Source: Alphaproteobacteria bacterium (lineage in GTDB: Bacteria > Pseudomonadota > Alphaproteobacteria > Rickettsiales > JABCZZ01). From it: DNA of 64,000 nt. The DNA is taken from contig JAMIFV010000043.1 of assembly GCA_035906055.1 (NCBI GenBank), positions 455 through 64,454 on the forward strand, in the 5' to 3' direction. The notes under the pieces were generated by a model. That model saw nothing but the letters and a program-made list of their open reading frames with translations, searched no databases and was not told where the DNA came from. The position numbers and the translations under genes are program-made. Each line of letters begins with the position of its first letter. Position 1 is the first letter of the stretch. This document shows positions 34,552-46,487 of this stretch, piece by piece.

Positions 34552-34628
34552 GCACCCGTAGCTCAACTGGATAGAGTATTGCCCTCCGAAGGCAAGGGTT
34601 GCTGGTTCAAATCCAGTCGGGTGCGCCA
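34552..34628 (+). tRNA. tRNA-Arg (anticodon CCG)
   Basis: Manual fold. Acceptor GCACCCG/CGGGTGC, D arm GCTC-AACTGGATA-GAGT, anticodon arm TTGCC-CTCCGAA-GGCAA, T arm GCTGG-TTCAAAT-CCAGT, discriminator G, encoded CCA. Confidence 0.9.
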
Positions 34629-34636
34629 GTTTTCGC

Positions 34637-36655
34637 TTAAGCGGCGGACTTGATCAGCACCTTTTCCCTTGGGCCGTCAGCAAGGATGCGCGAGCGCCCC
34701 ACCACAATGATACGGTCGCATGCCGACAGCAGGTGATGGCTGTGCGTGCTGATAAGCATGGTGCAGGTGCCTTTGAGCGCCGCAAGCTGGCGCGCCAGAT
34801 GTTCTTCCAGCTGCGCGTCCAGCCCGTTCGTCGGTTCGTCCAGCAGCAGCAATTGCGGCTCAAATGCAATCGCCCGTGCCAGCGCCACCAGTTGTTTCTG
34901 CCCTCCTGAAAGCGCATTGCCGCGCTGTCCTGCCTCGGTCGTCCAGTTGAGGCCGTTCTCCTGGAAGCTCTTTATCAGGCCGGTTATTTCAAGCGCCTTG
35001 CGGCGCGCTTCAGAAGAAAGCTGCGGTCTGCCGGCGCGAATATTCTCTTCGATCGTGCCGTCGATCAGCGAGACGTCCTGTGGTTTGTAACCTATCATGC
35101 GCGAAATATCGTCCGCAGTCATCGTGGATACGGGAATATTATCGATCAGCACCTGCCCCGCATCGGGGTGGATAAGCCCGGTGACAAGGCGCATCAATGT
35201 GGTTTTACCGCTGCCCGGCGCCCCGGCGATGCCCACCATCTCACCGTGCCGGATCTGCAGGGTCACATCCTTGAGCACAGGATGCCCCCCATGCCCCATA
35301 TTGCAGGTTACGTTATCCAGCCGCACTGAAGCTTGCGCCATCTCATGCGCAGCAACAGGCTTGCGCGGCGCATAGCCGGTGGGCAATATCCGGTTTAACT
35401 CCCTCAGCGCATTGCGCAGTTCATAGTACCGCACAAACAGCGTGGTGACCGAGGAAAAGCTCGCAATCATCCTCGCCGTGAGCATGGAGGCCGCCAGTAA
35501 CCCGCCGGAAGTAAGGCTGCCCGCTTCCACCATGTAGGCCCCCCCCACCAGCACGACGGCATAGGAAAGAAACGACAGCTCATTGCTGGCCGACTGCCCG
35601 ATGCCAAACCACACGCGCGCCATGCTGGAGGAATAGGACGCCGTATTACTCGCGCCATACCATTTATTGGCAATGGCGTTCTCGGCATATTTGCCCAGCA
35701 GCGCGTCGCGGGAGTGGATAATGTCCGCCAGCAGGCCAAGGCGCTTCTCGCTGGCACGGCTGGAATTCTTTTCATAGCGCAGCGCCGGGCGGATAATGAG
35801 GGCGTTTATCACCACCACCATAAGCCCGAAGCCAAGCCCCACAAACACCAGCGGCCCCGCAACCAGTGTGATTGCCAGCGCAAACAGGATGAGGAACGGC
35901 AGATCCGCCAGCGCCAGCATGTAAGTGGACGATACGAAATCGCGGTAATGCACCAGCTGCTTGTAACGCTCAAGCACCATGCCTATCTCAGGCAGGGCAT
36001 TGGGCTTCGTGTTCATGAGGCTGCGCAGTATCGTGCGGTCAAAGCCCGCGTCGCTGGAGCGTGCCACGCGTTCCGACACCAGCGTGCGGATGACACGCAG
36101 CGAGAAATCCATCACGGCGATGATGCCCATGCCTATGAGCAGCGCCCACATCGTCGCGGTTATGCCGTTGGCCAGCACTTTGTCGTATACGAAGCTGCTG
36201 AACAGCGGCAATGCCAGCGCGAACATGTTCACCAGCACACCGCACAGGAATATCTGCGCCAGCTTCGGCGTATGCCTGCGGATATGCGTCATCACACGGT
36301 CCGCTTCACCGTAAGGCTGAAGGATCACCAGTATCTCGGCCACATTGTTCAGGTCGTCGGGCGCTACGCCGCGGGCGACAGTGCCGTTTTCATTTACGAT
36401 GCAGCCGTTTTCCGCAGCACCGGCGACCGGAACATAACCGCCATCGTTTAGCAGCAGCACGCAGCCCACCTGTCCGTCTTCGTCGGGCAGCGCCTGATAC
36501 AGCAGCGGCATGCGCTTATGCACCATGCCTACGCTGGCAAGCTGATCTTTAAGCTCATTGTCACTGGGAGCCGCACGCTCAGATGCAAGCAATACACCGC
36601 GCGTTGCAAGCACTGCTGAAATGGCCCCACCGAGCGACTGGACCGCCATTATCAC
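34637..36655 (-). CDS. type I secretion system permease/ATPase (ABC exporter) with ~130-aa N-terminal extra domain
   Basis: 672 aa. TM domain, then Walker [10 protein letters not shown], signature [14 protein letters not shown], Walker B LLLLDEPT. The start (GTG 36655 or ATG 36649) overlaps or abuts the stop of the RTX gene. Confidence 0.92.
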
Positions 36656-39600
36656 GCCCCGTAATGCACATTAAGCTGTGCGATCTGTGTTATATGGGCT
36701 GGCTCGGAATAATAGCGGTAGACGTAGTCGGAGCCGGAGCCGGTGACCGTGAAATCGCCAGCGGCGGTGAAAGTGTCGCCTGTATCCAGCCTGAAAGCAA
36801 GCGTGGAACTGTTACCCGTATCCACCAGACCTCGTATGTCGCTGGCGGAAAGGGAGTAGGTGTTACCGCTAGCCGAATTGCGCACGTCCAGCGACTCGAT
36901 GGATACGTAACGGGAGCCGTCGAAGCTGTTGGCTGCCAGAGAGGTAAGCCCCGCTATTATCAGGCTGTCAGTGTCGCCGCCGCCGTCTATCAGCGTGAAG
37001 GTCGCCAAATCGCTGGCATTAATATAAAAGCTGTCATTGCCGAGGCCGCCATTAAGCGTGTCCGCCCCGCCGCCGCCGCTAATGATATCGTTACCGCTGC
37101 CACCATTGATGACATTGGCAGAACTGTTGCCATAGAGCACGTCGTCATAGCCAGAACCGGTGATGTTCTCGACATTGGTGATGGTACTGTAGGAATAGAT
37201 GCCGGTGGAACCCGTCCTCGCCTGATAGACGGAGAAGCCGCTGCCCCAGTAGTAGGCCTTGTCGGAAGAGCCGAAGAATGCGCCATCACTGAAAAAGACC
37301 TGCACGCCCGTGCTAGCCGAACTATACCAGTTATTGTCAAATATCACGGTATCGGTGCCGCTGCCACCGTCGATGGTATTGCTGCCCACCGTGGCATATA
37401 TAGTGTCGTTGCCGCCAAGGCCGTAAATGGCGTTCGTGCCGCCCTGCGCGTTGATCTGGTTGTTACCGCCGTTACCCACAAGGATGTCGTTACCGCCAGC
37501 GCCCAGGATATTCTCGATATTGACGAGGAAATCAGTACCGGAATACCCCGTGCCGAACCCGGTGTAAGCAAGGGCTGAACCTGTGGGGCTGCTGCCTGCC
37601 GCGATCGTCAGCGTGGATATGCCCCGGTCAATGTGATCGGCCACGCCGTTACTGTTGATATCAGCGGTGCCATCAAGGTAGATCACCGTATTGTTGTTAG
37701 TATTGACATAATACGTATCGGTTCCGCCGCCGCCGTCGACGCGGTCATTATCCGTCATGCGGATAAAGTCATTGCCGGAACCGCCGAAGATAAAATCCGT
37801 GCCATTGCCCGGATCATAATCCATCGCGGTGGTGGTGCCCCAGATAACGTCGTTGTACGCGCTGGCGATTATGCGGTCGATCCCGCCCTGCGTATACGTA
37901 TCGCCGATGGCGTGTGAAGAAGCGTCCGCAGCGGTTACGCCCCATCCGGCGCCGCTGGAAGCGTTTACCGTTATGGTCTGGCCGAGGCTGTTTCTCGCCG
38001 TACGGCTTACGGAATCAAAATTGACCAGCACGCCCACAGGGGAACTGTTATAATAGATCGTATCATAAGCGCCTGACGTGGTGATTACGCTGTCGGTAGC
38101 GCTATTGAGGTAAAAGGCATTGGTACCCGCACCGCCGTCCAGATATTTGGTGCCGCTGCTGGAGCTGTACAGGTTGTCGTTACCGATGCCACCGTAGAGA
38201 TAATCCGTACCAGCGTTACTGTAGAGGGTGTCGTTGCCATCGTTACCATACAGCACATCGTTGCCGTTACTGCCGGTAATGGTGTCGGCACCGCTTCCGC
38301 CGAGGATCGACGTGATCGAGCTGACGCCGGTGGTCGGCGTGAATGCATACAAGTCGCCGTTGGCAAGGCCAGCCGTGCCTGCGCCCGTCAGCAGGTTGAC
38401 GACAAGACCGGTAGAGTCCGCGGTGTAATTGATCGTGTTGGTTTGTCCTACCCCAAGGTTAGCGCCGTTAGTGCCATCATAACGCACGCCTGCATGCTGG
38501 CTGTAGAAATAATTATTTCCGCTGCCGCCATAAAGCGCGTCATTACCTGCAATGCCGGTATAGAACGTATTATTCCCGTCGCCGCCATAGAGTGTGTCGT
38601 TGCCGGTGCCGCCGGTAAGCGTGTCGTTGCCGTCGCCGCCATAGATCGTATCGTCGCCGCCTCCGCTGGAAATCACGTCGTCACCCGCACCGGCGGTAAT
38701 GGTTTCGGTGGCCGCCGTGCCGGTGATCGTGTCATTGTTCTGCGTGGCGATAAGCCGGGTAATGCCGCTGAACGTGTCGTTTAAGCCCGTGCCTGCCGCT
38801 GTGCCGGAGAGCAATATGGTAAGGCCGGTAGTGGTAACCGTGCTGTAATCGAGCGTGTTCACGCCGCCGCCGCCGGTGATGGAATTCGTGCCCAGCCCCG
38901 GCCTGAACGTATCATCGCCCGAACCGCCGATCAGCGTATCGTCATTGTCGCCCGTGGTAATCGTATTGCCGCCATTGCCGACGGTGATATGGTTGTTGCC
39001 CGCCCCGGCGTTGATCACGTTAGCACCGTCGCCAAGCACGATCGTGTCAGCACCTGCGCCCGCCGTCACGGTGTAATTGCCGCCACCGGCCTGAATATCG
39101 TTAGCGCCGTCCCCTGCCTGGATATTGCCGCCGCCGGAGGTAAGCCGGATAATATCGTCACCGGCACCGCCGGTAATCGTATAGTAGCCGGTGCCGCCGG
39201 TGATAGTGTTGGTGCCGTCACCCGCCGTTATCGTGCTGTCGCCATTACCGACCACGATAGTGTCCGCACCGCTGCCGGTAGTAATCATGTAAGCGCCTGC
39301 GCCAGCGGTAACGCTGTTCACGCCGTCGCCCGCAAATATTTCTCCGCTGCCGTCACCGACAGAGATCGTGTCATCGCCCGAGCCTGTGGTTACGCGGTTA
39401 TAACCGGCCCCCAGCGTCACGCTGTTGGTGCCGTCACCCGCGTCGACGATATTATCACCCGCCAAGGCCGTGATCGTATCGTTGCCGGAACCGGTGGATG
39501 CCGAGTTATTGCCCGCCCCCAGATCCACGATGTTGTTGCCGTTGCCCAGTGCCACCGTATCGTTGCCTTCGCGGGCATAGATGGTTTTGTCCCCATCTCC

Positions 39601-40917
39601 GCCGGTGATTGTGTCGTTATTGCGTCCGGCATGCACTTCGTCATTGCCGGTGGAAAGGGCGATGATGTTGGGCTGATCCTGCGTAGGCAGGATGTAAATC
39701 TCCTGCAGCCTGCCCTGATTTTCGTAAACCAGCGACTGGTCGGTCACCTGGCTCACATCGGTAACGTCCATATACAGGAAACGGAACGTCTGCTGACTGT
39801 GGAACTGTTGCGCACGCGTGGTCTTGCCGGTCACATCCACGGTAATATCGAAGCTGCCCGTTCCAGCAGTATCATAAATGAGGGTAAAAGAATCCTGCGC
39901 CAGCACGCTGCTTGAAGAAAGCGTCCAGTTGCCGCCGCCATTGTCGGTAGCGCCCAGAATGGAAACACCCGCCGGAACCCCGGATATCTGGACGTCATCC
40001 AGTGTAATGAAATAGCCTGCCACATTCAGGATAAACTGCTTGGCGTAATTGCTGGTGCTGACGGCGGGGTTGCTGTTGCCAACCGCTGGCCCCTGCGCGT
40101 AGATCAGGTCGTTGCCTGCGGTGCCGGTGATCGTGGCAGCGGAAAACTGCAATGCGTTGCGCGGGCCGATCTGCGCGTCCGCACCCGAACCCGCCGCACC
40201 GCCACCGCCATAAATGATGGTGGTGCCGGGCATGGTCGTGGTGTCATAAGTCGTGCTTACAACGTTGCCCATGAACAATGTGGTAATCGGCGTCAGGCTT
40301 AAAGGGGGCGGAACACCGGGAGGAGAAGCCGACGCCTGCGGGGGCGGCTTGTATTCATGCGGCGGTTCGTAGCTGTAATCCGAAGTATGCAGGTTCTGGA
40401 TGATCTTCTGTGCCTTATCGAGCATCTTTTCCGCAGCGGAACCTTCAGTGTTCTGGCTAGTGGACGACGTGCTCTGGGACGAGGAAGACGACGACTCATC
40501 CTGCTTGTGCTGCTCTTTTTCCGTCTCGGCCTGTGCCTTGGCCTCCTTGACGGCTTTCTCCACCGCTTCTTCCAGCTCGGCCCTGGTAAACTCCTTGGAG
40601 AGGTCTTCTTCGGCGGGCTTCTGCTCCTGCATGTCCGCCGACGTAAGCAAGGTGGAGCTGTCTACGGCACGCAATGTGGAATTCACCTGCGCCAGCAGCG
40701 CGTCCGCCGCCATCTTCTGACCTTGAAATTCTATTTCCGCAGGGGACTCGCTCATTGCTGAAAGCCCCGCGCCCGGCAGCACGATCAGGCTTCCGTCCTG
40801 TAACTGCAGCAAAATATCCACGTCGACAATGTCGATCCTGCTGATGGAGGAAAACGCCACATCAGAAAGGACATACGCCCCTGCCGCATTCGGTTTTACA
40901 AGTGCCTTCTGTGACAT
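36652..40917 (-). CDS. large RTX / hemolysin-type calcium-binding repeat protein (putative T1SS substrate, adhesin-like)
   Basis: 1421 aa. N-terminus ...ISRIDIVDVDILLQLQDGSLIVLPGAG resembles Bap/LapA-type prefix modules. Next comes a charged, Ser-rich and Pro-rich linker. The central region has hundreds of residues of GxGxD/N nonapeptide-like repeats, including canonical GGAGDDVISSGGGDDTIYGGDGNDTLTGGTGNDTLYGG. No Cys-rich or signal-peptide features. The acidic, Gly-rich C-terminal region is typical of T1SS cargo. Confidence 0.9.
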   Translation of the reverse strand: MSQKALVKPNAAGAYVLSDVAFSSISRIDIVDVDILLQLQDGSLIVLPGAGLSAMSESPAEIEFQGQKMAADALLAQVNSTLRAVDSSTLLTSADMQEQKPAEEDLSKEFTRAELEEAVEKAVKEAKAQAETEKEQHKQDESSSSSSQSTSSTSQNTEGSAAEKMLDKAQKIIQNLHTSDYSYEPPHEYKPPPQASASPPGVPPPLSLTPITTLFMGNVVSTTYDTTTMPGTTIIYGGGGAAGSGADAQIGPRNALQFSAATITGTAGNDLIYAQGPAVGNSNPAVSTSNYAKQFILNVAGYFITLDDVQISGVPAGVSILGATDNGGGNWTLSSSSVLAQDSFTLIYDTAGTGSFDITVDVTGKTTRAQQFHSQQTFRFLYMDVTDVSQVTDQSLVYENQGRLQEIYILPTQDQPNIIALSTGNDEVHAGRNNDTITGGDGDKTIYAREGNDTVALGNGNNIVDLGAGNNSASTGSGNDTITALAGDNIVDAGDGTNSVTLGAGYNRVTTGSGDDTISVGDGSGEIFAGDGVNSVTAGAGAYMITTGSGADTIVVGNGDSTITAGDGTNTITGGTGYYTITGGAGDDIIRLTSGGGNIQAGDGANDIQAGGGNYTVTAGAGADTIVLGDGANVINAGAGNNHITVGNGGNTITTGDNDDTLIGGSGDDTFRPGLGTNSITGGGGVNTLDYSTVTTTGLTILLSGTAAGTGLNDTFSGITRLIATQNNDTITGTAATETITAGAGDDVISSGGGDDTIYGGDGNDTLTGGTGNDTLYGGDGNNTFYTGIAGNDALYGGSGNNYFYSQHAGVRYDGTNGANLGVGQTNTINYTADSTGLVVNLLTGAGTAGLANGDLYAFTPTTGVSSITSILGGSGADTITGSNGNDVLYGNDGNDTLYSNAGTDYLYGGIGNDNLYSSSSGTKYLDGGAGTNAFYLNSATDSVITTSGAYDTIYYNSSPVGVLVNFDSVSRTARNSLGQTITVNASSGAGWGVTAADASSHAIGDTYTQGGIDRIIASAYNDVIWGTTTAMDYDPGNGTDFIFGGSGNDFIRMTDNDRVDGGGGTDTYYVNTNNNTVIYLDGTADINSNGVADHIDRGISTLTIAAGSSPTGSALAYTGFGTGYSGTDFLVNIENILGAGGNDILVGNGGNNQINAQGGTNAIYGLGGNDTIYATVGSNTIDGGSGTDTVIFDNNWYSSASTGVQVFFSDGAFFGSSDKAYYWGSGFSVYQARTGSTGIYSYSTITNVENITGSGYDDVLYGNSSANVINGGSGNDIISGGGGADTLNGGLGNDSFYINASDLATFTLIDGGGDTDSLIIAGLTSLAANSFDGSRYVSIESLDVRNSASGNTYSLSASDIRGLVDTGNSSTLAFRLDTGDTFTAAGDFTVTGSGSDYVYRYYSEPAHITQIAQLNVHYGA

Positions 40918-40956: not shown

Positions 40957-42333
40957 TCAACCTTGCCCTCCTTCCATGCGATCCCTCAGGCTGCGCGCCT
41001 CGGTCACCATTTCTTCCACAAGGATGCTCTGGTGACTGATGGAGGTCGAGATTGATTCTATAATAGTAGATAATGACTCAAAACCCGTTAACTTTTCTTT
41101 AATATCCCACAAATGACGGCCTGATCCAACACCTGCCTGTTCAATCGCCCCGGCCTTTTCCACCATATTCCTGAAGGAAGCCATAACATCGCTATGCGAG
41201 CGCCGCTGGGAATCGAGCACTGCCGTCAACGAGCTCGCCAATTGCACATGAATATCAGATACCTGCTGAAGAACACGCTGCTGTTCCAGATTAGAGGCAA
41301 CAAGGGAGCGCAATTCTTCCAGCGTGCGTTCGCCGGTTTCCTTCATACGCGGACCGAACCCCAGCAGTTCGTTGAGCTTGGTGGTGCCGTTGATGCTGTT
41401 TTCAAACGACTTAAAAAGAACATCGAGTTTTGTCAGAAGCTTATCCATTCTATTGGCCAGCAGCACGTTGCTTTGCCAGTTCTTGCCAGCCCCCGGCTCC
41501 ACCCCCTCCAGCTCCATTGAGGCGAGCGTCGCGATCGTCTGCGACTGCATGGCGATATTGGGATTGCTCTTGCGCGTGATCTGCGTCAGGTCATGCATCA
41601 CATTACGCGCGCACATTACTACACGGCTGACGAAATGGCGCAGGTTGGTCATCATGATGGACAGCATGAGACTGGTCACAAGGCCAAACATGGACGCGGA
41701 AAACGCGATGCCCATGCCCGCCAGCGGCTTGCGCAATTCATGGATAAGCCGCTTGAACTGTTCTTCGGGGCTTTCACTGCTGCCGCTCATGCCGCCAAGC
41801 ATTTCCGAAATGCCGGTCAGCGTTTGCAGCAGACCGATGAACGTGCCGAGCAGGCCAAGCGCGATCATGAAGCCGACAAGGAACTGCGGAAATTCCAGCT
41901 TGCTGTTATAATCGTCCAGCAGCGCGTGCAGTTCGCTTTCGATCGCGTTCTGGTCAAGCTGCGAGCTCAGCGTGCCGCCCGTTTCAGCGATATGCTTCAG
42001 GTAATGCCTTACGTAGCGCTCACTGATCCAGGGCTCTTCGAGCAGTTCCTTCATCGGCACACCGGCGGCAGCTTCCTTGCCAAAGCGCTCGATGACGCGG
42101 AAATCCTTCTGCGCGCTGCGCAGACGTTGCAATATGATAAGCGTGCCGTACAACGCCGTGCAGATGATCGCGCCGCTGATGGCGAGATCCTTTTCAATCG
42201 CTTCCTTGACGAAATCGCTGAAATAAAACGCCAGCAACAGAATAAGCACCAGCGGCGACATCACCTTGATCGTCACCACCACTTCGCGGTAAAGAATCGG
42301 GTCTTTTTTTGCCAGGCTGCGAAATACGTTCAT
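40957..42333 (-). CDS. MotA/TolQ/ExbB proton-channel family-like protein with long C-terminal helical tail
   Basis: 458 aa. Two N-terminal TM helices, then FLVGFMIALGLLGTFIGLLQTL and GMGIAFSASMFGLVTSLMLSIMMTNL, which match the MotA_ExbB core (GLLGT..G ... A...T..GL). About 220 C-terminal residues are heptad-like and charged. ATGA overlap with the HlyD gene stop. Confidence 0.7.
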   Translation of the reverse strand: MNVFRSLAKKDPILYREVVVTIKVMSPLVLILLLAFYFSDFVKEAIEKDLAISGAIICTALYGTLIILQRLRSAQKDFRVIERFGKEAAAGVPMKELLEEPWISERYVRHYLKHIAETGGTLSSQLDQNAIESELHALLDDYNSKLEFPQFLVGFMIALGLLGTFIGLLQTLTGISEMLGGMSGSSESPEEQFKRLIHELRKPLAGMGIAFSASMFGLVTSLMLSIMMTNLRHFVSRVVMCARNVMHDLTQITRKSNPNIAMQSQTIATLASMELEGVEPGAGKNWQSNVLLANRMDKLLTKLDVLFKSFENSINGTTKLNELLGFGPRMKETGERTLEELRSLVASNLEQQRVLQQVSDIHVQLASSLTAVLDSQRRSHSDVMASFRNMVEKAGAIEQAGVGSGRHLWDIKEKLTGFESLSTIIESISTSISHQSILVEEMVTEARSLRDRMEGGQG

Positions 42334-43676
42334 ATGGAATCCTTAAATATACTGTAAGTGAATTTTCTGACCGGAGACAGAATGAGGTTGAGCACGGTGC
42401 GTTTGCCCGTGACAATATCCGCTGTTGCCGTCATGCCGGGTGACATGGAAAGCCCCTGATAGCTTGACGGCAGCGCGCTGACCAGAACGCTGACGCGGTA
42501 AAACACCTCCCCGCGCGCATCGGCGATGGTGTCGGCGCTGATCTCCTTCACCTTGCCTTTGAGCACACCGAGTTCGCCCACATCGTAGGCGGAAAGGCGC
42601 ACCGTCGCGTCAAGCCCCGGTGCCAGATACCCTCTGTCCTTGGGCAAGGCCTGCGCTTCAATAAGTATCTCGCTCGTGGAGGGGATCAGCTCGAGTATCT
42701 TGTCGCCTGCGCGAATAACCCCACCGATAGTGTTCACCGTGATGCGGTTCACCGTGCCGTCGATCGGCGAACGTATGTCCGTGCGGCGGTAACGATCGGA
42801 ATCGCCGCGCAATACCTTCTCAAGTCGTTCGATCTCCGCAAGCGCCGCCACATAATCGGTCTGGGCGCTCGTTACGAAATCCGACTGGATGGCTTTCTTC
42901 CTCGCATTCTCCTCGGCTATGGCCGCTTCCAGCGTGGGGATGCTGCTGGCCGCATCGTTGGTTTCGGTCTCCAGCCTGCCTTCACGGCTGCGCGCTTCAA
43001 GCAGTTCCAGCTTTGAAGACGACCCGCGCGCGGCCATTTCCTCGATCAGCCCGGAGCGGTTATGCGCCACCCCCAGTTCACCCCTGAGCTTTACCACGCG
43101 CGTTTTTGCCTCGTTAAGGCGGGCGGTATGCTGGTTGATCGCCTCCGCATGCACCTTCATCTCCTGCGCCAGTTTTTCCCTGCGCGAAGCGAACAGCTTC
43201 TCTTCGGCCCTGCCAACAGGCGTGTTTGCCAGCTCTTCGGGAAGCGTAAAGTCAGCACTTCCCCTGGACTCGCTCTCCAGCCTCGCGGCACGCAGTTTCT
43301 GCGTCGTGATCTTGGCTTTGGTCTCTTCCAGATTGGCCCCCGCCGATACATTATCAATCGTCAGCAGCAGGTCGCCCTTCTTTACCGCAGCACCTTCCAC
43401 AACGGCAATCGAACCGATGATGCCACCTTCGAGATGCTGTATGGACTGGCTACGCCCGGCCGCGATGATCTTGCCGTTCACGCGCACCACCCGGTCGATT
43501 TCGGATACATAAGCCCACAGCAATGCCGCAACCACGCAGAATGCGACCAGCAGCACGTACAGCATCGTTCCTTCCATGCGACCGGGCGCGCGCGGCGGCG
43601 GCACGGCACCACCAGGCGGCTGTGAGGAGGCCGCGCTGTCAATGCCCTTCAAGAAGTATCTCAACATGGCCTGCAT
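42330..43676 (-). CDS. HlyD-family type I secretion periplasmic adaptor (MFP)
   Basis: 448 aa. One N-terminal TM helix. Lipoyl-like VNGKIIAAGRSQSIQHLEGGIIGSIAVVEGAAVKKGDLLLTID, a long coiled-coil hairpin, and C-terminal beta-barrel motifs. Confidence 0.9.
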   Translation of the reverse strand: MQAMLRYFLKGIDSAASSQPPGGAVPPPRAPGRMEGTMLYVLLVAFCVVAALLWAYVSEIDRVVRVNGKIIAAGRSQSIQHLEGGIIGSIAVVEGAAVKKGDLLLTIDNVSAGANLEETKAKITTQKLRAARLESESRGSADFTLPEELANTPVGRAEEKLFASRREKLAQEMKVHAEAINQHTARLNEAKTRVVKLRGELGVAHNRSGLIEEMAARGSSSKLELLEARSREGRLETETNDAASSIPTLEAAIAEENARKKAIQSDFVTSAQTDYVAALAEIERLEKVLRGDSDRYRRTDIRSPIDGTVNRITVNTIGGVIRAGDKILELIPSTSEILIEAQALPKDRGYLAPGLDATVRLSAYDVGELGVLKGKVKEISADTIADARGEVFYRVSVLVSALPSSYQGLSMSPGMTATADIVTGKRTVLNLILSPVRKFTYSIFKDSI

Positions 43677-44262
43677 TCTTACTTTCGCTAGCGTTAAGGG
43701 GCTGCAGTATCCTGCTGTTAATCTTGTCCCCGGTCGTAAACCCCTTATCGATAAGGAACTTCCTTACATACAGCGCACGGTAATACGCAAGGCGCTGCGC
43801 GACGCTGTACGCCTCACCGCCCAGATAGGAATTGATAATGATCTTCTGGCTAGGCGACTTTCTGATTTCCACCAGCGCGTCCACCAGCTTTTGCGACGAC
43901 CCGTCGTCGAGGTCAACGCCGGACGCGGAATAATTGATGACCAGCTTACCTGCGCTCTTGACGATGTCTGCCTGCGTGCGCGCCGAATCATCGAGGAACC
44001 TGCTTGCCTCGGCGCTGTCGATCACCACGTCCTCATTGGCTACGGGTGCCGCTTGTTTAGCAGGCGTCACCTGCGCCTGCTGCTGTTGCTCAATCACTTT
44101 TTTCTGCTCGATGATGTCCTGCAGTTTCTTTTCCACCTTGTTGGCGGAAAGCGACAAGGCAATAACGAATACCACCAGCACGAACACCAGCGTCAGCACC
44201 ACGTTGCTGAGCACGTCCACAAAGCCCGGCCAGTAATTTTGTTCTTTTCCGCCGCTGTCCAT
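43639..44262 (-). CDS. MotB/OmpA-like protein (stator B-subunit-like)
   Basis: 207 aa. N-terminus NYWPGFVDVLSNVVLTLVFVLVVFVIAL parallels the MotB W..[13 protein letters not shown] plug/TM segment, including the Asp just before the helix. The C-terminus ...GGEAYSVAQRLAYYRALYVRKFLIDKGF is a divergent OmpA_C-like motif. Confidence 0.65.
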   Translation of the reverse strand: MDSGGKEQNYWPGFVDVLSNVVLTLVFVLVVFVIALSLSANKVEKKLQDIIEQKKVIEQQQQAQVTPAKQAAPVANEDVVIDSAEASRFLDDSARTQADIVKSAGKLVINYSASGVDLDDGSSQKLVDALVEIRKSPSQKIIINSYLGGEAYSVAQRLAYYRALYVRKFLIDKGFTTGDKINSRILQPLNASESKNAGHVEILLEGH

Positions 44263-44264
44263 GT

Positions 44265-46487
44265 TCAGTCCTTCTTCGCCACCTGCGTGTTCCTGGTATG
44301 CTGCGCCACCAGCAGGGGCACAAGATCGCCCATCTGCCGGTGCACCTGATACGCCGCCATGATGCGCGTAACTTCCATACGCATCATGTTCATGCGGTTG
44401 TTATAAAGCTGCCCGTGCGCGTCCAATAGCTCGAAAATGGAACGGCTGCCGTTCTTGTACTGGTCGGTGAACTCAGCCACCACCTTCTCGCTGGCAGCGA
44501 TGGCATCGCGCATGAGCCCGATACGCTGGTCGGCGGCATGAATGGAATTGTAACTGGCGACCATCGCTTCCTCGAGGCGGGACTTTACGTCCAGCGAACG
44601 CAGGCGCGCTTCCTTGGATTTTTCGATTGCCGTGAGGCCCGAACCAATCTCCATGCCGCCGTTGAGCGTCCAGCGCGCCACCAGCATCAGGCGCTTGTCG
44701 CGCTGGCTGGGATAAACGCCGTCCACCGGGTTGCCGTTGGCCGCGCCGCCTGCATTATAAATATCGGTATCCGAATATTCGAGGCCCAGCTTGGGAACCG
44801 CTTTGGAAAAGGCATTGTTGCGCGTGGAGTCGGCAATATCCACTTTATTGCGGCTGACGATATAATCCGGGTTCTGCCTGATCGCGGCCTGCAGCGCTTC
44901 ATCAAGCGACACGGGCACATCAGGCACGGTGATCGAGATTGCGGCAAGCTGCGCAGGCGTTATCTGTGTAAGACGACGGAATTCCGCGAGACTGGTTTCA
45001 TATTCGCCCTGCGCTTCCGCCTGCGCCGCTTCCGCATTGCTCGCATGCACCTTGATACGTTCAAGATCCCCCACCGTTGCACCGCCCACTTCAACCCTTG
45101 TGGCCATATAGTCCGAAAGCTCATTCAGGCGCGTGCGGTACTGACCGGCGAGGTCATAGGCGATCTTGGACTGCACCAGCCTGAGATAGGCGCTGATGGT
45201 GTCATAGGCGATACCGTCCCGCTCGGCGGCGGCCTGATTCTTGATAAGCGATTCCTTATCAGTGCTATTGAGAATCTCCGCCACCACCTCCAGATCAATC
45301 AATGGCTGGCTCACCGCAAGCATGCGATCGGTTCGGGTATGCTTGTCATTGAGCACGCGGTTGCCGAACACGTCGTTATACGACGCAGGCGCCGACTGCT
45401 CTTTGCCGCGCGAAAACTTTACATCCACAGACGGCAGCATGCGTGAATAGGCCGTCATCTTTTCCAGTTGCGCTGATTTCGTGGTGGAATGGCCTGCCTT
45501 AATCTCAAGATTGTTTTTTAGCGCGAAAGCAACCGCTTCATCCATGCGAATGGGCTCCAGCACACTGGCCGCGCGGGCATACTGCCCTACATTCAGGCTG
45601 ACGATGCCATCGAAATGCTTAAGGAAACTAGTGATGACACTGTATTTAACCGCTGGAATTGAAGTAAAAGGATCATCGGCCAGCGCTATGCCTGGAAGCT
45701 CATGCGCAGGCGGTATTGCAGGTGCCTGCACCTGCTCTGCCACAGGTACAGACGCTACAGCAGACGCGACCGCTGGCGCTGGCTCGCCAGTGGCCTCCCG
45801 CACAGGGGCGAGGGCGGGCTTTTCAGACATAGTCACAGAAGCTGGCGCGGGCGTATCCTGCACCATCGCAAGCGGAGAGCTGGCCGCACCGGCGGACGGA
45901 GCCAGCATCGGCGCGGATATTGTGGCCGGAGCCTGTGCCGCCTGCGCAACCGGCGCGGCAGCGGGAGCAGTGACCGCATGCTGTGAATTCACACGGGGCA
46001 GCACCCTTATGCCGTCCGTCATCTCCGCAGATGCAGGTGTGACCACTGAAGCAGCTTCACTGGCTTCGGCTTGCTGCTGCCACGGCAAAGGCCCGGAAAG
46101 TGCAGCGCCTGCACGCGCAGGCGCGGCAACGGCCTGCCAGGGCAGCGCAGCGGACTGCTGCGCCGGGGACGTAACCGTTTTCTGTTGCTTGAGGGATTCC
46201 ACCGCTTCTTCCAGCGACTGTGCGGCTTCCTGCAGTGATCTGGCGGAGCGCTCCAGCGCCGCCAGCGAATGCGTACTGGTTGCATCCTGCGCCATACCCT
46301 GCGCAAGTGCGTGGCGCGGCGTGGCGGGAGCGGTCAGGGCAAGCGGGCTACTTTCGGCAGCGTGCACAAGGGAAATTTTGCTAACGGCGCAGACTAAACA
46401 AAACGCCAGCACCGGCCAGCAATTTTGCCTCCCAACCCTACCCTGTTTTATATGCATTTTGTTATTGTCCGCGTCCGGTTCGGACAA
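44265..46487 (-). CDS. TolC-family outer membrane protein with ~300-aa low-complexity N-terminal extension
   Basis: 740 aa. Signal-like WPVLAFCLVCAVSKISLVHA, then a long Ala/Pro/Gln/Ser-rich region. From about residue 300 the sequence shows the TolC-type two-repeat pattern (MDEAVAFALKNNLEIKAG...LPSVDV...). The start could be 46457. Confidence 0.85.
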   Translation of the reverse strand: MSEPDADNNKMHIKQGRVGRQNCWPVLAFCLVCAVSKISLVHAAESSPLALTAPATPRHALAQGMAQDATSTHSLAALERSARSLQEAAQSLEEAVESLKQQKTVTSPAQQSAALPWQAVAAPARAGAALSGPLPWQQQAEASEAASVVTPASAEMTDGIRVLPRVNSQHAVTAPAAAPVAQAAQAPATISAPMLAPSAGAASSPLAMVQDTPAPASVTMSEKPALAPVREATGEPAPAVASAVASVPVAEQVQAPAIPPAHELPGIALADDPFTSIPAVKYSVITSFLKHFDGIVSLNVGQYARAASVLEPIRMDEAVAFALKNNLEIKAGHSTTKSAQLEKMTAYSRMLPSVDVKFSRGKEQSAPASYNDVFGNRVLNDKHTRTDRMLAVSQPLIDLEVVAEILNSTDKESLIKNQAAAERDGIAYDTISAYLRLVQSKIAYDLAGQYRTRLNELSDYMATRVEVGGATVGDLERIKVHASNAEAAQAEAQGEYETSLAEFRRLTQITPAQLAAISITVPDVPVSLDEALQAAIRQNPDYIVSRNKVDIADSTRNNAFSKAVPKLGLEYSDTDIYNAGGAANGNPVDGVYPSQRDKRLMLVARWTLNGGMEIGSGLTAIEKSKEARLRSLDVKSRLEEAMVASYNSIHAADQRIGLMRDAIAASEKVVAEFTDQYKNGSRSIFELLDAHGQLYNNRMNMMRMEVTRIMAAYQVHRQMGDLVPLLVAQHTRNTQVAKKD

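Follow-up and report, generated by a model that had tools for sequence, protein, structure and literature searches.

A MotA/ExbB-like subunit with a long helical tail, encoded with a MotB-like partner in a type I secretion cassette of an alphaproteobacterium

We analyzed a stretch of 64,000 nucleotides of alphaproteobacterial DNA (contig JAMIFV010000043.1 of assembly GCA_035906055.1), here called the window, with a focus on a gene for a MotA/ExbB-like membrane protein that we refer to as the A subunit. The gene is an open reading frame (ORF) of 458 amino acids (aa) on the minus strand, with an ATG start (42333..40957). It is part of a type I secretion system (T1SS) cassette in which genes for a TolC-like protein, a MotB-like protein (the B subunit), an HlyD adaptor, the A subunit, an RTX cargo and an ABC exporter follow one another on one strand, overlapping or closely spaced. 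An earlier sequence-only reading had described the A-subunit ORF, which is real, naming no strand for it, and had quoted peptides from it that are present as written. Its description of a MotA/ExbB subunit with a tail holds, its comparison with ZorA of the Zorya defense system does not, and the MotB-like partner and the precedent of SiiA and SiiB in Salmonella had been missed.

The membrane core and the MotB-like partner

The membrane core of the A subunit (aa 1-258; 41560..42333, minus strand), as delimited by hydropathy, charge bias and invariant columns, consists of transmembrane helices TM1 and TM2, a cytoplasmic loop of ~80 aa, TM3, a periplasmic loop, TM4 and a helix carrying ARNVMHDL. 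Four segments of membrane length were found by hydropathy, at about aa 24-45, 50-68, 151-172 and 206-228, and the Pfam model MotA_ExbB (PF01618) matched aa 106-240 (E=3e-8; 33.9 bits against a cut-off of 22.9), which agrees with the four-helix MotA_ExbB core proposed earlier. A model computed with AlphaFold2 (AF2) from an alignment of 38 homologues was all-helical, with a predicted local distance difference test (pLDDT) score of 78. When the core of this model was searched with Foldseek, ExbB and TolQ came first (7ajq, 5sv0 and 9ddm; E=6e-4 to 1e-3, target TM-score 0.5-0.6), and structures of ZorA and PomA ranked below them. Against the sequences of the PDB, a profile of the core retrieved a solved flagellar MotA (E=4e-3), aligned in register (aa 76-183 with 78-188) and with Thr164 on the GT motif of MotA; the full-length family profile gave no real match, so that MotA was found by the core-only profile alone.

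The charges on either side of the core are uneven, with 5 K/R and 2 D/E before TM1 and 5 and 1, respectively, after TM4. This excess of basic residues fits a topology with both termini inside. The core is in register with MotA, whose TM2-TM3 loop is cytoplasmic, and the corresponding loop and the C-terminal tail of the A subunit are therefore expected in the cytoplasm as well. Homology and charge bias together thus predict that everything after TM4 is cytoplasmic.

TM3 carries GLLGTFIGLL and TM4 carries FSASMFGL. The latter is invariant, as are the columns P149, G163, T164, P203, S214, R232, R243 and others. The residues of a MotA-type ion path are kept, with an invariant G163-T164 pair in TM3 and a conserved Ser-rich TM4. 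The TM2-TM3 cytoplasmic loop is conserved, and so is the TM3-TM4 periplasmic loop, which is unusually long at 33 aa. The core is followed by a variable linker (aa 259-284; 41482..41559, minus strand) that could not be aligned and that differs in length among homologues; the pLDDT falls below 50 for aa 264-287.

The B subunit (207 aa; 43639..44262, minus strand), encoded two genes upstream of the A gene, was recognized by its Asp16 motif and by ZorB/MotB hidden Markov models (HMMs) that match its N-terminus. It has an N-terminal TM helix, then a linker rich in Gln and, at the C-terminus, an OmpA-like domain. Its N-terminus, NYWPGFVD16xLSNVV, is strictly conserved and leads into the single membrane helix, and Asp16 with its flanks is invariant in alignments of 21-64 sequences. 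The match to Pfam OmpA was below the cut-off (E=1.8e-4). When a profile of 21 B-subunit sequences was compared with all PDB chains, MotB of C. jejuni was the best match (E=1.7e-3), and Pal and ATP-synthase b were also found. The C-terminal domain carries a peptidoglycan-binding motif, L158-A-x2-R162-A-x2-V166-x3-L170, in which A159, R162 and L170 are invariant. Judged from these features, the 207-aa protein is the cognate partner of the A subunit. We also observed that the NCBIfam PRK09039 models for Alphaproteobacteria, named "peptidoglycan-binding protein", match aa 8-107 of the B subunit with E=1e-9, far below their cut-off, which hints at kinship with another uncharacterized MotB-like family.

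Profile matches, predicted fold, ion-path residues and the cognate B subunit all place the A subunit in the MotA/TolQ/ExbB superfamily of proton channels. Its homologues are numerous. A word-indexed search returned 412, many of them alignable end to end at 40-78% identity, and an exhaustive HMMER search returned 1454 representatives of clusters formed at 50% identity with E<=1e-3, including 846 at E<=1e-10 and 104 at E<=1e-30. A tblastn search of plasmids gave no match to the A subunit. Annotations of the homologues do not go beyond "hypothetical protein", "biopolymer transporter ExbB" and an erroneous "methyl-accepting chemotaxis protein".

The helical tail

The last ~230 residues of the A subunit (~230-458) form a tail for which AF2 predicts three long helices, at about aa 283-324, 326-400 and 405-456 (in the full-length model, 285-323, 328-399 and 406-457); the helical part, which is also supported by its heptad periodicity, spans aa 285-457 (40963..41481, minus strand). 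A model of the tail by itself had a pLDDT of 83.8 and a predicted template modeling (pTM) score of 0.34. The hydrophobic residues recur with a period of 3.45-3.55 residues, beyond what was seen in shuffled controls (p=0.002-0.02). The helical, heptad-like character that had been ascribed to this region was therefore recovered, and the statement that flagellar MotA, ExbB and TolQ lack such a tail is borne out by the solved ExbB, TolQ and PomA chains, which have 214-250 aa. The tail has no match in Pfam and nothing significant in an NCBIfam scan, and Foldseek found no PDB match to the tail-only model. Periplasmic placement with a known fold, which had been named as the outcome that would speak against a cytoplasmic coiled coil, was not what the topology and fold searches returned. 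We consider it likely that the tail is cytoplasmic and coiled-coil-like.

The tail is present in each of the 118 close homologues measured, with lengths of 175-464 aa (median 306), which indicates that it is not a chance extension. Its strongest conservation lies in two near-invariant family motifs at the helix breaks, LLGFGPRMKE and GRHLWEIKE. In the window, turn motif 1 reads LLGFGPRMKETGE (aa 323-335; 41329..41367, minus strand) and lies between helices 1 and 2, and turn motif 2 reads GSGRHLWDIKE (aa 403-413; 41095..41127, minus strand) and lies between helices 2 and 3; both translations were checked. G325, G327, P328, R329, M330, E332, E335, H407 and L408 are invariant in the 38-sequence alignment, and all of those in turn motif 1 except M330 are also invariant among 73 sequences. 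Turn motif 1 was found in 108 of 119 close homologues, and a Herbaspirillum homologue with 37% overall identity keeps it as FGPRMHET. In the homologues P0005-P0008, a module bearing GRHLxEIKE is duplicated, with the copies 84 aa apart. The tail is thus never lost in close relatives and grows by module duplication. We also considered an internal repeat between the two halves of the tail. An hhalign comparison placed the two turn motifs in register, with E=0.02 and a probability of 2%, and the repeat was rejected.

In more distant subfamilies (Enterobacter-like, Pseudomonas, Roseateles, Methylovorus), the core persists together with a helical tail of about the same size, but the turn motifs do not. 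This exchange of sequence at constant architecture is one of the observations that would be expected if the tail were mainly a structural scaffold that oligomerizes the A ring or positions or clusters the machine, for example at the pole, and transmitted neither signal nor force. Oligomerization domains typically show heptad periodicity and long helices, and the changes in tail length by module duplication have no obvious correlate. However, the turn motifs consist of invariant Gly, Pro, Arg and His residues outside the heptad pattern and are retained from Alpha- to Betaproteobacteria, which points to a specific contact or hinge rather than generic bundling, and other motors with five channel subunits and two partner subunits (5:2 motors) assemble without such tails. 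A purely structural role is therefore, in our estimation, very unlikely.

The secretion cassette and its relatives

A link between the A subunit and an ABC exporter system had been proposed from the sequence, and it is supported by gene order in 79 related loci and two distant ones. The 79 loci were collected by a scan limited to one genome per species and come from Rhodospirillales, Magnetospirillum, Micavibrio, other Alphaproteobacteria and Oxalobacteraceae (Herbaspirillum, Herminiimonas). Nearly all of those with enough flanking sequence have the genes for TolC, B, HlyD, A, cargo and ABC in this order on one strand; in the Herbaspirillum loci, cargo and ABC are swapped. The core order TolC-B-HlyD-A also occurs in the two distant members, from Pseudomonas and Roseateles, and is thus retained in Alpha-, Beta- and some Gammaproteobacteria. 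Given this conservation, the A and B subunits very probably form a MotAB-like unit that is dedicated to type I secretion.

Among the other genes of the window cassette, the TolC-like outer-membrane factor (740 aa; 44265..46487, minus strand) matches Pfam OEP from aa 316 (E=2e-34) and TIGR01844 (E=3e-34). Its first 315 aa (45540-46487, minus strand) form an Ala/Pro/Ser-rich extension of ~300 residues with low complexity, and its candidate start is TTG. The HlyD-family T1SS adaptor (448 aa; 42330..43676, minus strand) matches TIGR01843 above the cut-off (E=1e-98) as well as Pfam HlyD_3, and its stop codon overlaps the start of the A gene. At its other end, the ORF overlaps the end of the B gene by 38 bases (43639-43676), and the true start may be an in-frame Met just before the membrane helix, M34 or M38.

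The cargo gene (1421 aa; 36652..40917, minus strand) encodes an RTX repeat protein with 17 stretches matching HemolysinCabind (E=1e-64). Its first 110 aa (40588-40917, minus strand) hold a conserved domain of ~100 aa that contains IDIVDVDILLQLQDGSLIVLPG. The domain is shared with cargo genes of 29 other cassettes from Alpha- and Betaproteobacteria, with E-values down to 1e-23 and below 1e-5 in 26 of the 29, and scans of Pfam and NCBIfam gave nothing significant for it. It is followed by a charged helical stretch and then by Ser- and Pro-rich linkers, a layout that recalls the N-terminal beta-sheet and coiled-coil region controlling retention of the Salmonella adhesin SiiE.

The ABC exporter is of the LssB type (672 aa; 34637..36655, minus strand). 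Its start overlaps the cargo stop, and it was recognized by ABC_tran, ABC_membrane and, below the cut-off, TIGR03375 (E=7e-136). Alignment with the LssB model begins only at model position 141, leaving an N-terminal domain of ~120 aa in the window protein (aa 1-120; 36295-36655, minus strand), for which the Pfam and NCBIfam scans again returned nothing significant. The ABC proteins of the Herbaspirillum cassettes have ~567 aa and apparently lack this domain, and the A subunits encoded with them keep the tail. On the opposite strand, 9 bases beyond the exporter stop, lies a tRNA-Arg(CCG) gene (34552-34628, plus strand). A tRNA, at which islands commonly insert, thus forms a boundary of the cassette. 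The G+C content (0.57-0.60) does not set the cassette apart from the flanks, and the flanking genes are housekeeping genes such as those for phosphoketolase, solute ABC transport and an M48 peptidase.

A different arrangement was seen in Roseateles L083 (GCA_021353235.1, 2748-17353), where the order is ABC, TolC, B, HlyD and A, then HDOD and GGDEF/EAL genes, then the cargo. The cargo is adhesin-like, with more than 4972 aa and RTX and PA14 domains. The signaling genes in this cassette suggest that some members of the family are under cyclic di-GMP control.

Known ion-driven motors and the proposed role

The sequence-only reading had likened the tailed subunit to ZorA, and it could accordingly be asked whether the locus is a Zorya-type anti-phage module, in which ZorA/ZorB-like proteins would detect damage to the envelope and relay the signal via the tail. 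Among single HMMs, PADLOC ZorA1 indeed scores best on the A subunit (E=1.5e-11), and PADLOC ZorB models match the B subunit (E=2e-5). In both systems, moreover, the MotA-family core continues into a long helical tail in the cytoplasm, and the partner is MotB-like and binds peptidoglycan. However, the ZorA1 match is confined to the membrane core and the ZorB matches to the N-terminal membrane part, and the NCBIfam ZorA models score far below their cut-offs (ZorA_4, 22.9 bits against 500; ZorA_2, 22.1 against 100; ZorA_1, 18.3 against 190). ZorA in the PDB was reached by the core profile at E=5-10 only, as compared to 4e-3 for flagellar MotA. No genes resembling ZorC, ZorD, ZorE, ZorF or ZorG were found in the window or in the related loci, and hlyD always splits the A and B genes, both of which lie inside the T1SS cassette. 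The ZorA tail has ~500 aa and forms a pentameric coiled coil of ~70 nm that signals to ZorC and ZorD (PMC11946911). Whereas that tail is continuous, the one described here has 230 aa, is broken by two conserved Gly-rich turns and occurs in a secretion context, and no match in sequence or fold was found between the two. The likeness to ZorA is an analogy of design and not membership, and the Zorya reading of the locus is close to refuted, with a chance that we would put at next to nothing. A practical consequence is that ZorA/ZorB HMMs give false positives on these A and B proteins, so that annotation of defense systems from single genes would mislabel them.

A closer precedent is found in Salmonella. 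The SPI-4 T1SS operon encodes SiiA and SiiB, which together make up a proton channel (10.1101/641415) and have been listed as the type I secretion example among pentamer:dimer motors (PMC12204202). As in the window, a MotB-like and a MotA-like protein are encoded together with TolC-type, HlyD-type, ABC and cargo genes. SiiA (210 aa) has Asp13 and a membrane helix spanning residues 14-38, followed by a disordered linker and an OmpA-like domain that binds peptidoglycan; SiiB has 462 aa (10.1101/641415). The B subunit shares this layout, with Asp16 just before its single membrane helix and a linker that is Gln-rich. The sizes are nearly identical (207 aa for SiiA's counterpart and 458 aa for that of SiiB), and both SiiB and the A subunit have a long region after the membrane core, although SiiB was compared by description only. 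The gene siiB (STM4258) was once annotated as a "putative methyl-accepting chemotaxis protein", as are some homologues of the A subunit. The two systems differ in gene order (siiABCDEF versus TolC-B-HlyD-A-cargo-ABC), in cargo (a 5559-aa BIg adhesin in Salmonella versus the 1421-aa RTX protein) and in the OmpA motif, which is fuller in the B subunit (L-A-x2-R-A-x2-V-x3-L) and reduced to L-x3-R in SiiA. A correspondence based on the residue numbers R162 and R167, which occur in both SiiA and the B subunit, was rejected as a coincidence of numbering; by motif alignment, R162 of the B subunit corresponds to R167 of SiiA. No Salmonella protein was among the homologue matches listed, including those of a search seeded with the Enterobacter-like P0145. 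The A/B pair may thus work like SiiAB, by an analogy that stops short of proven family membership, with SiiB likened by description.

The other ion-driven complexes resemble the pair in part. Flagellar MotA and MotB (PomA and PomB) share with it the four membrane helices, the ~80-aa cytoplasmic TM2-TM3 loop, the in-register alignment with solved MotA, the critical Asp and the OmpA-like domain. In contrast, the A-subunit tail is three times longer, the A and B genes are not adjacent, and the loop sequence ERFG..EPW..RYVRHYL is specific to the A-subunit family; no flagellar genes are found near the window cassette. ExbB/ExbD-TonB and TolQ/TolR-TolA supply the best structural matches to the core and are envelope machines that use the proton-motive force (PMF) and pass energy to a partner, but ExbB and TolQ span the membrane with three helices, lack a long tail and show no linkage to ABC exporters. 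They act via TonB or TolA as a third protein, which the window cassette does not encode. GldL/GldM, of type IX secretion and gliding, is the other known 5:2-type ion-driven motor tied to protein secretion, for which Hennell James et al. (2021) are cited in PMC12204202. It belongs to another secretion system and another phylum, its output runs through a long GldM arm in the periplasm rather than a cytoplasmic tail, and no sequence relation to it was seen in this analysis.

Taken together, the explanation that we favor overall, and regard as moderately probable, is a secretion-dedicated, proton-driven, stator-like unit with the cytoplasmic tail as a coupling or regulatory arm. The A subunit would be the channel-forming component of an ion-driven complex of the MotAB/ExbBD type serving the T1SS of its own operon. 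By analogy with the MotAB, ExbBD, TolQR, ZorAB and SiiAB families, five A subunits would surround two B subunits, and once B is anchored to peptidoglycan, proton flow through Asp16 would make the A ring rotate or pass through a cycle of conformations. SiiAB is dispensable for secretion of SiiE but required for its surface retention and for invasion (PMC12607715; PMC6272769). On this precedent, the ABC ATPase rather than the motor would be the secretion engine, and the motor would use the PMF to regulate one export step, most likely retention versus release of the large RTX cargo, or its passage. The five tails would then be an output or coupling arm on the cytoplasmic side that contacts the ABC exporter or incoming cargo. 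Such a contact would fit the interaction of SiiB with the ABC protein SiiF reported from two-hybrid assays (PMC12607715). We propose this coupling role of the tail tentatively and hold it to be somewhat less than an even prospect, with its partner suggested by analogy.

Several observations weigh against this explanation or narrow it. The low pTM of the tail-only model leaves the arrangement of the helices in the monomer tail uncertain. Tail length does not correlate with cargo length (Spearman rho=-0.24, p=0.19, n=31), contrary to the co-variation that the sequence-only reading had suggested looking for. The N-terminal domain of the ABC exporter cannot be the universal partner of the tail, as the Herbaspirillum proteins lack the domain while the tail is kept. 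Distant subfamilies keep the core and the cassette with unrelated tails, so that contact with a partner would not be made through a universally conserved sequence. The lack of a length relationship, the missing Herbaspirillum domain and the replaced tails together argue against a simple ruler between tail and cargo and against a single universal partner. Finally, the periplasmic domain of SiiA, for which a crystal structure has been published, was not returned at E<=10 when the B-subunit profile was compared with all PDB chains, in a set whose inclusion of that domain was unchecked.

Alternatively, the output of the motor may be periplasmic, as in ExbBD-TonB and TolQR-TolA. Force would be exerted through the B subunit or the periplasmic loop of the A ring on HlyD, the TolC-like channel or the N-terminal domain of the cargo, and the tail would be an input or regulatory element that gates the motor in response to cytoplasmic signals. 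In Salmonella, both SiiA and SiiB interact with CheM chemoreceptors, which move the balance for SiiE from release towards retention, and this suggests that signals feed into the channel (10.1101/2021.05.14.443827). The HDOD and GGDEF/EAL genes directly after the A gene in Roseateles point the same way, the conserved N-terminal domain of the cargo could be a retained plug, and the TM3-TM4 loop of the A subunit is of unusual length and conserved. Nevertheless, the cassette encodes no third component resembling TonB or TolA, there are no signaling genes in the window's own cassette, and the strongest conservation in the tail, that of the two turn motifs, is silent on the direction of signaling. 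We therefore view periplasmic output as the less likely arrangement, while giving it appreciable weight.

A stronger version of the coupling proposal would be that these loci represent a large undescribed T1SS family in environmental Alpha-, Beta- and Gammaproteobacteria, with a built-in 5:2 proton motor whose pentameric tail mechanically engages the ABC exporter or unfolded RTX cargo. We judge this to be improbable. If it were true, ATP and the PMF would together drive or gate secretion or the retention of cargo, and tails of the SiiB and ZorA types would be two variants of one principle, a rotary stator with cytoplasmic output through a helical tail.

How the PMF helps type I secretion has still been called unclear for SiiAB in the literature of 2019-2025 that was consulted, and that system has been studied only in Salmonella. 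Full-text literature searches gave no description of a cassette containing A and B outside Salmonella SiiAB, and the A subunit and its cassette possibly constitute a new subfamily. The window shows that a MotB-like protein together with a long-tailed MotA-like protein is the fixed core of a widespread T1SS cassette. It thereby offers comparative data beyond Salmonella, namely the invariant motifs GFGPRMKE and GRHLWEIKE, natural variants in tail length, a conserved N-terminal domain of the cargo, and cassettes with and without the N-terminal domain of the ABC protein. The carriers also include culturable hosts (Herbaspirillum, Magnetospirillum, Methylovorus, Pandoraea and Roseateles).

One further homologue, P0285 of Methylovorus sp. 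MP688 (546 aa), is annotated as "ATP-binding cassette domain-containing protein" and was considered as a functional, Rosetta-stone type fusion of a MotA-like protein with an ABC protein. Its residues 1-399 are 98% identical to a related Methylovorus MotA-like protein, and residues 400-546 represent the final ~147 aa of an ABC ATPase domain of the T1SS type. The functional interpretation was rejected, as P0285 looks like the product of a deletion joining two genes, that is, a decayed cassette in which the A gene is fused to the downstream ABC gene.

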